Shown here: piece after piece, positions 61,787 to 63,093 of the stretch
Layout: every line of letters starts with the position of its first letter
Position numbering within the stretch: position 1 is the first letter of the stretch
DNA from: Bacilli bacterium
Lineage (GTDB): Bacteria > Bacillota_I > Bacilli_A > RFN20 > CAG-826
Reading direction: 5' to 3'
Assembly (NCBI GenBank): GCA_045597865.1
Contig: JAZLKX010000052.1
Coordinates: 43,017-107,016, forward strand
DNA: 64,000 bases
Notes under the pieces: generated by a model
Database searches by the model: none
What the model was told of the DNA's origin: nothing
What the model saw: the letters and a program-made list of their open reading frames with translations, nothing else
Position numbers and translations under genes: made by a program

Positions 61787-62347
61787 ATGGTAATTATCGT
61801 TGAAGGTCCAGATAGAACGGGAAAAACAACACAAATCGCAAAGATGAAAGAGCATTATGAAGCTCAAGGTAAATCTGTTCAGGTTATTCATTATGAATCC
61901 ATCAAGAAAGATGAGGGTTTTAAGTACAACGCAAAAATCTTGCAGCAGATGAGCCGTGTTCGTTATGATGACATGTTAAATTTGGCAAATACTTTTGCAG
62001 AAGATGACAAGACCGTACTTATCTTTGACCGTGCTCACTTGGGTGAACTTGTATATGCACCGTTGTTTAGAAAATATGGCGGTGAATATGTTTTCAACTT
62101 GGAAGACAAGTATCCAACTTTCCTTGAAAAAACAAAACTGTTTGTTTTCGTTGATGAAGCAAAAAATCTTGTTAAGCGTGATGATGGCAAGAGCTTGGGC
62201 AAGGTGACTAAAAAGACAAAACAGCGTGAAAAGGATTTGTTTGAGGTCGCATTTGAATGCTCAAACATTAAAGACAAGCACTTGATTAACATCAACAAGA
62301 CAAAAGAAGAAAAAGTGTGGGAATTGGTTAAGGAAAAACTTGTATGA
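61787..62347 (+). CDS. Thymidylate-kinase-fold dNMP kinase
   Basis: IIVEGPDRTGKTTQ P-loop, typical of the Tmk family. ATGA overlap with the hydroxymethylase gene. Confidence 0.7.
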   Translation: MVIIVEGPDRTGKTTQIAKMKEHYEAQGKSVQVIHYESIKKDEGFKYNAKILQQMSRVRYDDMLNLANTFAEDDKTVLIFDRAHLGELVYAPLFRKYGGEYVFNLEDKYPTFLEKTKLFVFVDEAKNLVKRDDGKSLGKVTKKTKQREKDLFEVAFECSNIKDKHLININKTKEEKVWELVKEKLV

Positions 62348-63093
62348 TTGAAAATTTTGAATTGAAAGAAGATCTTGATTTTGAGTCAGAAATTGGCATT
62401 AAGAACAATGATGTAATTCGTAATGAAGTACAGGATGTTTTGGCTTGGAAATATAAGTCAGGTGATAAGGTTGGCAACACTTGGGAAATCATTGATGCGC
62501 ATTTGACTCTTAATCCATATCAGCCGTACTTGAACATTTTCAATAGACCATTTAAAAAGGACTATCTTGAAAAGGAACATAAGTGGTATATGTCACAAGA
62601 TCTGTCTATTAAAGGATGGATGGACGACATCAAGATTTGGAACTACTGTGCATCAAAAGACGATAAGCAACTTATCAACTCAAATTATGGTTGGTGTGTT
62701 TTCTCAAAGGAAAATGGCGACCAATATGAAAACTGCTTAAAGAAAATGAAGGAAGATGTAAATACACGTGAAGCGTTGATGATCTATACTCGACCGAGCA
62801 TGCACATTGATGCCGTTGAAAACGGAAAGCATGATTTTATGTGTACTGTTTCTGCTCAGGCAATGATCCGCAATGGCAAACTGTATTACATTGTGACACA
62901 AAGATCTTGTGACTTGGTAACTGGTCTTTCGTTTGACTTCCCTTGGCACTGTTTCGTGTATCAGATGATGTATGAAGAATTGAAACAGACATATCCTGAG
63001 CTTGAACGCGGAAGTATCTTCTATAATATCGGAAGTCTTCATGTATATGACCGTCACGAGAATCTTCTCAAGGCATATTCAGTTTATGGGTAA
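62344..63093 (+). CDS. Deoxycytidylate 5-hydroxymethyltransferase (T4 gp42-like ThyA-family enzyme)
   Basis: INSNYGW, MIYTRPSM, HDFMCT, QRSCDLVTGLSFDFPW (Asp at the ThyA Asn177 position, as in T4 gp42), GSLHVYDRH. Confidence 0.8.
   Translation: MIENFELKEDLDFESEIGIKNNDVIRNEVQDVLAWKYKSGDKVGNTWEIIDAHLTLNPYQPYLNIFNRPFKKDYLEKEHKWYMSQDLSIKGWMDDIKIWNYCASKDDKQLINSNYGWCVFSKENGDQYENCLKKMKEDVNTREALMIYTRPSMHIDAVENGKHDFMCTVSAQAMIRNGKLYYIVTQRSCDLVTGLSFDFPWHCFVYQMMYEELKQTYPELERGSIFYNIGSLHVYDRHENLLKAYSVYG

Follow-up and report, generated by a model that had tools for sequence, protein, structure and literature searches.

A predicted T4 gp42-type dCMP 5-hydroxymethylase encoded with an overlapping thymidylate-kinase-fold kinase in an uncultured gut phage

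We analysed a stretch of 64,000 nucleotides (positions 43,017 to 107,016 of contig JAZLKX010000052.1, assembly GCA_045597865.1), referred to here as the window, which represents 64 kb of a phage genome of at least 266 kb. Near the end of the window lie two overlapping genes, which encode a thymidylate kinase (TMK)-fold nucleoside monophosphate kinase and a homolog of thymidylate synthase (TS). The TS homolog belongs with T4 gp42 and, as judged from its sequence and a structural model, probably makes 5-hydroxymethyl-dCMP (5hm-dCMP). The locus as a whole is probably best explained by a folate-dependent gp42-type synthase, a kinase coupled to it, and glycosylation by an enzyme of the GT-B glycosyltransferase fold. 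Numerous metagenomes of gut, faecal and viral origin contain the phage, whose G+C content is 39%; a megablast search of cultured phages with positions 58000 to 64000 returned no nucleotide-level relative. What is new is a gp42-family enzyme in this phage lineage, since the anti-restriction strategy itself is already known. Coordinates and residue correspondences are collected in Table 1.

The TS homolog matches the Pfam family Thymidylat_synt (PF00303) at 8.4e-15. The best match in a sequence search of the PDB is T4 gp42 (1b49, E 4.1e-38), with thymidylate synthases appearing from 4.5e-7 and the CMP hydroxymethylase MilA from 1.4e-6, so that, among solved structures, T4 gp42 leads TS by 31 orders of magnitude. 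Among 50,697 cultured-phage genomes, the best matches are T4-like gp42 genes with 37-40% identity. An AlphaFold2 model, for which 50 homologs were used, has a predicted local distance difference test score (pLDDT) of 94.3, and a Foldseek search with this model again places 1b49 at the top (E 4.8e-22, template-modelling (TM) scores 0.80/0.83, root-mean-square deviation 1.9 Å), followed by MilA and then by TS. The window protein resembles T4 gp42 (PDB 1B49/1B5D/1B5E/6A9A) in fold, in identity (approximately 35-39%) and in length (249 against 246 residues). It stops where T4 gp42 stops, and both proteins lack the C-terminal region of approximately 50 residues found in TS. The NCBIfam thymidylate synthase models all score far below their cut-offs, with the best at 39.7 bits against a required 327. 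A preliminary description of this DNA, made from its letters, had assigned the protein to the gp42 type on the basis of short motifs. All of the quoted motifs are present, those of the TS homolog each align with the matching block of T4 gp42 in HMMER, and the view that this is a T4-gp42-like enzyme and no ordinary thymidylate synthase holds. Identity as a ThyA enzyme was considered and rejected given Asp198 in place of Asn177, Asp164 in place of a hydrophobic residue 143, the absent TS tail and the score below the NCBIfam cut-off.

The active-site residues were located in an alignment of the window protein with E. coli ThyA, T4 gp42, Aeromonas phage 31 gp42, Erwinia FBB1, RB69 gp48, DLP2 gp44, Rhizobium P10VF_177, Xp15, Peppino gp50 and 115 metagenomic homologs. 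The window protein and T4 gp42 have one and the same signature pattern, and each signature residue is kept in at least 112 of the 115 metagenomic homologs. The preliminary description had noted that Asp replaces the Asn with which thymidylate synthases select uracil, and the alignment bears this out: Asp198 aligns with T4 Asp179 and ThyA Asn177, and Asp occupies this position in 113 of the 115 homologs. An Asp also occupies the position of ThyA Leu143 (114 of 115 homologs). The residues associated with folate chemistry (E58, W80, Y94, D169 and G173 in ThyA numbering) are all retained; for the fourth of these, the title of PDB entry 1bjg states that D169N does not open the cofactor ring. Rules for reading these positions come from a recent study of phage TS homologs, in which selection of dCMP is ascribed to N177D, an acidic residue 143 accompanies a non-methyl product and admits water to give the hydroxymethyl group, and D169N is diagnostic of hydroxylases (PMC13326640).

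The kinase and TS-homolog genes are at the coordinates originally proposed, and their overlap can be read directly from the sequence. The ATG of the TS homolog occupies 62344-62346 and the TGA of the kinase 62345-62347, an arrangement that suggests translational coupling. The uvsX-like gene upstream is closed by a terminator-like hairpin with a folding energy of -17.4 kcal/mol (z -4.3), as stable as which none of 200 shuffled sequences folded. The kinase, the TS homolog and the helicase therefore begin a new transcription unit. The unit is compact, with the DnaB/gp41-like helicase starting at an ATG at 63097. The order of genes in the phage is T4-like: polymerase, uvsX, the kinase-TS pair, gp41-type helicase and gp32, as is also seen in RB69 and FBB1. 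The T4 gp42 gene likewise sits between uvsX and the gp41-type helicase, near the polymerase.

The kinase contains the motif EGPDRTGKTTQ at residues 6-16, with a P-loop of the form G7-x4-G12-K13-T14, and a D81-R82 motif; G7, G12, K13 and R82 are invariant in its family. It matches Pfam Thymidylate_kin (PF02223) over residues 5-175 (8.8e-11, 42.3 bits against a gathering threshold of 27), and the best PDB match of its family profile is the vaccinia TMK (2v54). The window kinase falls in phrog_761 (4.9e-12) together with RB69 gp45 (1.2e-44), and hhalign relates it to the RB69 gp45/DLP2 gp46 family with 96.9% probability (E 1.3e-10, 145 columns). Kinases of the phrog_761 type, annotated as "nucleotide kinase", are neighbours of the TS homologs that modify cytosine in RB69, DLP3 and RL38J1 (PMC13326640). 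The window kinase shares with RB69 gp45, DLP3 gp78 and RL38J1 gp214 a length of approximately 180 residues and a TMK/YorR-like fold, as well as a cytosine-modifying TS homolog nearby. It differs from RB69 gp45 in that BLAST identity is restricted to the P-loop and in that its gene directly overlaps the TS gene. T4 gp1 (1DEK/1DEL) was not matched in the PDB, either by the single sequence at E <= 1 or by the family profile at E <= 0.01. The preliminary description had proposed a coupled deoxynucleoside monophosphate (dNMP) kinase. The TMK-fold gene and its ATGA overlap with the TS homolog support that proposal, but the enzyme is not of the T4 gp1 type. By analogy, conversion of 5hm-dCMP to 5hm-dCDP is the moderately likely role of the kinase. 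This predicted role is that of T4 gp1, which phosphorylates 5hm-dCMP and leaves dCMP alone, although gp1 belongs to a separate family; in contrast to T4 gp42, the window enzyme would be coupled to a TMK-fold kinase and not rely on one of the gp1 type.

The pairing of kinase and TS homolog is conserved. Three relatives (loci L013, L015 and L016), with TS-homolog identities of 99, 79 and 72%, keep the pair with an overlap of 4-8 nt and the same uvsX and helicase flanks. An exhaustive HMMER search returned 286 representative clusters at E <= 1e-10. Fusions of the two enzymes also occur. Proteins P0282 (414 residues) and P0283 (396 residues), both from these clusters, combine the kinase (E 2e-27) with a TS domain (6e-57 and 2e-42), and a second architecture, seen in P0070, P0076, P0077, P0079 and P0081, has a TMK-like N-terminal domain. 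This domain was tested on P0070, where it matches the window kinase family with 94.5% probability and the RB69 gp45 family with 87.7%. The TS domains of all four fusions checked (P0282, P0283, P0070 and P0076) carry the 5-hydroxymethyl-type signature. TS homologs at 65-67% identity, from phages with a T4-type portal and gp23, have no adjoining kinase, and the coupling is therefore lineage-specific and not universal.

Glycosyltransferases are present, as the preliminary description had said; it presumably meant the two GT2-type genes. A better candidate for a DNA glycosyltransferase is a GT-B ORF that opens a sugar operon. The ORF itself has no Pfam match, and its distant homologs carry PF13524. 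Its AlphaFold2 model (pLDDT 92.4) has T4 β-glucosyltransferase as its top Foldseek match (1qkj, 8.1e-9), followed by BshA (3mbo), MshA (3c48/3c4q) and the sucrose-phosphate synthase 6kih. The best structural matches are the same ones reported for the DNA arabinosyltransferases of RB69 and DLP3 (PMC13326640). The GT-B fold and these top matches are thus common to the window protein and to the T4 and RB69/DLP3 enzymes; the TM scores are, however, only approximately 0.5-0.6, the identities are 12-14%, and no Pfam family is matched by the window protein. Glycosylation of the DNA on 5-hydroxymethylcytosine (5hmC) is, by analogy, somewhat favoured.

The remaining genes of the operon would supply an activated sugar. 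The SIS-domain isomerase is nearest to HxlB (NCBIfam 1.8e-41, against 1e-3 for KpsF/GutQ; PDB YckF 5.2e-29, against 1.1e-7 for 3etn). The 3-epimerase scores 97.8 bits with NCBIfam AlsE and 92.4-92.7 bits with rpe, and its PDB match is 3ct7 (4.1e-17). The nucleotidyltransferase/kinase matches phrog_4098 over its full length (1.7e-10), the PHROG of RB69 gp52:53 (AfhE), and AfhE-like homologs are also found in a cluster of Enterococcus phage 9183. The module and the family-B polymerase gene that follows it are conserved in L018, a relative on a 235-kb contig. Compared with the UDP-arabinose route of HY126 AfhE/AfhF and RB69 gp51-55, the window operon shares the PHROG and architecture of the bifunctional enzyme and the logic of a pathway with isomerase, kinase, phosphatase and nucleotidyltransferase. 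It departs from that route in three respects: the isomerase is not of the KpsF/GutQ arabinose-5-phosphate type, the KdsC-like phosphatase is not of the gp51 type and shares no PHROG with RB69 gp51, and there is an additional 3-epimerase, equally near to the allulose-6-phosphate and the ribulose-5-phosphate 3-epimerases. A tblastn comparison of the window ORFs with the RB69 cluster matched the polymerase, UvsX and the helicase and nothing else, so the sugar genes are not RB69 orthologs at the BLAST level. With a hexuloisomerase-like isomerase and an allulose-like epimerase, the sugar may therefore not be arabinose. The GT2 and pyruvyl transferase pair at 27329-28947 may elaborate the sugar further. 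A more far-reaching proposal, which we put forward tentatively and consider doubtful, is that the phage decorates 5hmC with an unusual sugar of its own making, neither glucose nor the arabinose of RB69, perhaps extended or pyruvylated through the 27329-28947 pair, and that the TMK-like kinases are 5hm-dCMP kinases.

Genes that manage the nucleotide pool are found around TS homologs in relatives. At 6245-9248 of locus L022, a serine hydroxymethyltransferase (SHMT) gene and a dUTPase/DCD-family gene lie directly 5' of a kinase-TS fusion. A hydroxymethylase releases tetrahydrofolate (THF) and not dihydrofolate, so that SHMT alone can recycle the cofactor; the SHMT gene beside the fusion fits a folate one-carbon cycle with THF as product. 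Besides L022, genes of the dUTPase/DCD family are found close to the TS homolog in L010 (5108-5563), L020 (449-910), L021 (2137-2631) and L019 (8229-8645), and these genes are candidates for the dCTP/dUTP-clearing role of T4 gp56. Locus L019 is that of the cultured Enterococcus phage 9183 (NC_055907, 28004-32956), whose gp043-gp048 cluster encodes, in this order, a TMK-like kinase, a TS homolog with an identical 5-hydroxymethyl-type signature, a dUTPase, an AfhF-like phosphatase, an AfhE-like protein and a 406-residue protein. The phage differs from that of the window in being a siphovirus of a Gram-positive host and in having a dUTPase-family gene within the cluster, which the window lacks. 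On sequence grounds, the cluster implies cytosine hypermodification; a literature search found no published DNA chemistry for Enterococcus phage 9183, and one on HY126 and Afh gave nothing further than PMC13326640. Modification genes seem variable between relatives, since L016 has an ATP-grasp (TupA-like) gene upstream in place of the nucleotidyltransferase/kinase. Two other features of the relatives were observed. The family-B polymerase of L016 (1036-4791, with the 72% TS homolog) is called as 537 residues plus separate ORFs and may be split or interrupted, and in L021 the TS homolog is followed by a dCMP deaminase gene and has UDP-glucose dehydrogenase and epimerase genes in its vicinity.

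Several observations weigh against the proposed function or limit its reach. The window protein has Glu143 (codon 62770-62772) at the position of TS Arg127, a residue through which the partner subunit binds phosphate and which is retained in T4 gp42. This is the sole departure from T4 gp42 at the aligned positions, and Glu is also found there in 66 of the 115 homologs, including most of the close ones. The apparent loss of a second phosphate ligand in the MAFFT alignment (T4 K28, E. coli R21) is probably an alignment artefact, in a region where the window protein reads 'GDKVGNT' and T4 reads 'VDKTGVKT'. The rule for position 169 is an empirical correlation from one paper, tested solely in the sense that D169N gives 5-hydroxycytosine (PMC13326640). 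The window, together with the 10 kb that follow it in the 99% relative (approximately 74 kb in all), yielded no dCTPase of the gp56 or MazG type, dUTPase/DCD-family protein, dCMP deaminase, SHMT or dihydrofolate reductase; the genes in those 10 kb encode the helicase, gp32, DHH, YqeY and TnsA-like proteins. PHROGs and Pfam were run on approximately 75 of the 85 ORFs of at least 60 residues, most of which stayed without assignment, and phmmer searches with RB69 gp56 and the relatives' dUTPase/DCD, SHMT and deaminase proteins against six-frame ORFs of the window and L013 gave nothing below E 0.03. The preliminary description had predicted that genomic cytosine is replaced and had suggested looking for a dCTPase. 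The gp42-type enzyme, the kinase and the glycosyltransferases speak for replacement by hydroxymethylcytosine, whereas neither a dCTPase, of the kind T4 has in gp56, nor any other dCTP-excluding function was seen in approximately 74 kb of a genome of at least 266 kb. The search covered roughly one quarter of the genome, and complete replacement is therefore plausible at most; replacement may be partial or full.

Alternative activities of the TS homolog were weighed against these data. The "gp42-like" homologs RB69 gp48, DLP3 gp80 and RL38J1 gp216 are flavin- and O2-dependent 5-hydroxy-dCMP synthases, whose product is afterwards arabinosylated or hexosylated (PMC13326640, 2026). An enzyme of this kind in the window would place the sugars in ether linkage to 5-hydroxycytosine instead of on hydroxymethylcytosine. 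The gene context is similar to the RB69/DLP3 clusters, with a TMK-like kinase of the same PHROG by the TS homolog, an AfhE-like nucleotidyltransferase/kinase, glycosyltransferases and a phage pathway to a nucleoside diphosphate (NDP)-sugar. N177D and an acidic residue 143 are common to both enzyme classes, and for a long time RB69 gp48, too, carried the annotation of a dCMP hydroxymethylase. The active sites, however, differ. Three hydroxylase-clade sequences (RB69 gp48, DLP2 gp44 and P10VF_177) deviate at five signature positions, with the changes E58F, W80Y/L (Tyr in RB69 and DLP2, Leu in P10VF), Y94F, D169N and G173V, and none of these is present in the window protein, which reads RSCD where the three hydroxylases read RSQN. 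Identity to RB69 gp48 is 19% (38.9 bits), against 134 bits to T4 gp42. The SHMT gene adjoining a family member points to folate use, and the SIS isomerase is not of the arabinose-5-phosphate type. Hydroxymethylation is therefore favoured by the retained Asp190 and the four other folate-type residues together with the low identity to RB69 gp48, and we consider a flavin-dependent hydroxylase very improbable. A dCMP methyltransferase, forming 5-methyl-dCMP as inferred for XP12 and other phages substituted with 5-methylcytosine, or a dUMP-specific TS or dUMP hydroxymethylase, would equally have a TS fold with all catalytic and folate residues, and N177D alone would also fit a dCMP methylase. Residue 143 is nevertheless Asp as in hydroxymethylases and not bulky and hydrophobic, the protein ends as T4 gp42 does, Asp198 argues against dUMP as substrate, and the TS models are far below their cut-offs. 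Such an activity is consequently most unlikely, and a gp42-type dCMP hydroxymethylase remains the preferred identity.

The role of the kinase is a separate matter. It could be an ordinary dTMP kinase on the route to dTTP, or serve some other step, and adjoin the TS homolog merely through clustering of nucleotide genes, with another enzyme encoded elsewhere, such as one of the gp1 type, acting on the modified nucleotide. Its Pfam family and its nearest solved relatives are those of thymidylate kinases, some TS homologs have no kinase beside them, and in RB69 the kinase shown to phosphorylate modified dCMP is the gp1 homolog gp159 and not the TMK-like gp45 (PMC13326640). Against this stand the overlap conserved in relatives, the two fusion architectures, all with dCMP-type TS domains, and the fact that RB69, DLP2/DLP3, RL38J1 and Enterococcus phage 9183 each have a member of this kinase family next to a cytosine-modifying TS homolog. 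The window kinase also scores 35.1 bits with the NCBIfam dTMP kinase equivalog TIGR00041, under the cut-off of 83.25 bits, and aligns with it through residues 1-32 alone. Adjacency by clustering is in our view unlikely, and we retain the assignment of the kinase to 5hm-dCMP at the strength given above.

A pathway consistent with these observations is as follows. By analogy with T4 gp42, Cys167 of the synthase would attack C6 of dCMP, with Asp198 reading the N3/N4 face of the cytosine and Asp190, Glu78, Trp99 and Tyr115 handling 5,10-methylene-tetrahydrofolate and the proton transfers. The exocyclic methylene intermediate would be hydrated rather than reduced, given Asp in place of Leu as residue 164 and the absence of the C-terminal tail of TS, and the products would be 5hm-dCMP and THF. 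The TMK-fold kinase would convert 5hm-dCMP to 5hm-dCDP, a host NDP kinase would form the triphosphate, and the family-B polymerase of the phage would incorporate it. After replication, the GT-B enzyme would add a sugar, activated by the phosphatase, isomerase, 3-epimerase and nucleotidyltransferase/kinase of the adjoining operon, to the hydroxymethyl group. DNA modified in this way would resist restriction and CRISPR cleavage.

Table 1. Features of the locus. Positions are nucleotides of the window or, where stated, residues of the TS homolog.
Feature	Position	Strand	Size	Basis or remark
TS homolog, predicted dCMP 5-hydroxymethylase	62344-63093	+	249 aa	gp42 match, AlphaFold2 fold, signature residues
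Thymidylate-kinase-fold NMP kinase	61787-62347	+	186 aa	Pfam Thymidylate_kin, phrog_761
ATGA start/stop overlap of kinase and TS homolog	62344-62347	+		Read from sequence
AAGGA ribosome-binding site	62330-62334			9 nt 5' of the TS-homolog ATG
Terminator-like hairpin followed by U-tract	61700-61737	+		3' of the uvsX-like gene
Family-B polymerase	53355-56066			
GT-B glycosyltransferase, candidate DNA (hmC) glycosyltransferase	47853-49100	+	415 aa	First gene of the sugar operon
HAD-IIIA KdsC-like sugar-phosphate phosphatase	49141-49647	+		NCBIfam KdsC 1.7e-17, Pfam Hydrolase_3
SIS-domain phosphosugar isomerase	49631-50215	+		Closest to 6-phospho-3-hexuloisomerase
Phosphosugar 3-epimerase, ribulose-5-P/allulose-6-P family	50232-50915	+		Pfam Ribul_P_3_epim 2.9e-26
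Bifunctional sugar-1-P nucleotidyltransferase (N-terminal)/sugar kinase (C-terminal), AfhE-like	50912-52570	+		Pfam NTP_transferase and APH
GT2-type glycosyltransferase	27329-28105	+		Pfam Glyco_tranf_2_4 1.1e-7
Polysaccharide pyruvyl transferase	28102-28947	+		PS_pyruv_trans 1.6e-18; 4-nt overlap with GT2 gene
Second GT2-type glycosyltransferase, weak match	34736-35551	+		Pfam Glyco_tranf_2_4 1.9e-4
INSNYGW	TS-homolog residues 111-117			
MIYTRPSM	TS-homolog residues 146-153			
DFMCT	TS-homolog residues 164-168			
QRSCDLVTGLSFDFPW	TS-homolog residues 186-201			
GSLHVYDRH	TS-homolog residues 230-238			
Equivalent of ThyA E58	TS-homolog E78			
Equivalent of ThyA W80	TS-homolog W99			
Equivalent of ThyA Y94	TS-homolog Y115			
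Equivalent of ThyA R126	TS-homolog R142			
Equivalent of ThyA L143	TS-homolog D164			
Equivalent of ThyA C146 (T4 C148)	TS-homolog C167			Catalytic Cys, in DFMCT
Equivalent of ThyA R166	TS-homolog R187			
Equivalent of ThyA D169	TS-homolog D190			In RSCD
Equivalent of ThyA G173	TS-homolog G194			
Equivalent of ThyA N177 (T4 D179)	TS-homolog D198			In GLSFDFPW
Equivalent of ThyA H207	TS-homolog H233			
Equivalent of ThyA Y209	TS-homolog Y235			

Other genes of the window were assigned in passing. A helicase gene at 9-2385 is split into two ORFs, of which the first (9-542) ends in helicase motif II followed by the N-terminal half of an intein ('FVDE|CLAGDTLIE', Hint/PT-HINT 3.4e-11) and the second (1483-2385) starts with an intein C-terminal splicing block followed by Helicase_C. 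A 232-residue ORF between them (558-1256) has no Pfam match. The arrangement looks like a naturally split intein or an intein invaded by an endonuclease gene. A Nudix-domain protein (18261-19346) resembles bifunctional nicotinamide mononucleotide (NMN) adenylyltransferase/Nudix hydrolases (PDB 2fml 7.7e-14, 2qjo 1.4e-10), and an NH3-dependent NAD+ synthetase is encoded at 20472-21269 (2e18 5.9e-34); these two genes may rebuild NAD+ against an NAD-depleting defence. The regions 12131-13444, 16203-17435, 35617-38099 and 38660-39838 encode a DNA ligase together with a complete set of enzymes for RNA repair, which consists of an Rnl2-like RNA ligase with a PHA02142 OB domain, a T4 Rnl1-like RNA ligase, an AAA_33 (polynucleotide-kinase-like) kinase and two metallophosphoesterases. 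A 176-residue ORF at 33772-34302, just 5' of a 155-residue ORF, a GT2 gene and the AAA_33 kinase gene, has a weak partial match to ThyX (Pfam 3.2e-6 over 57 residues, with no PDB match) on which we do not rely. Further genes at 22666-25450, 25718-26227, 42235-43518 and 46624-47127 encode a DUF2828/DUF7788 protein (weak VWA match) by an AAA ATPase, an Hsp20-family protein, an SPFH/Band-7 protein and a PQ-loop membrane protein. The window contains no tRNA genes and no Rfam matches.

Cytosine hypermodification decides the survival of a phage against restriction enzymes, CRISPR-Cas and type IV systems, and it also affects the cloning, nanopore sequencing and engineering of phage DNA. The findings do not overturn current understanding; they provide a well-supported annotation. 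The sequence rule of Asp190 together with Glu78, Trp99, Tyr115 and Gly194 separates the locus from the 5-hydroxycytosine route, and the gene fusions are evidence for joint action of these synthases and a little-understood family of kinases. A donor pathway for a sugar other than glucose could yield a new DNA modification. If 5hmC does carry an unusual sugar made by the phage, cytosine hypermodification would gain a new chemical class, and the widespread TMK-like kinases fused or coupled to TS homologs would receive their first assigned function, as 5hm-dCMP kinases. Overall, the locus adds an abundant lineage of uncultured gut phages to the phages with a T4-type hydroxymethylcytosine route.

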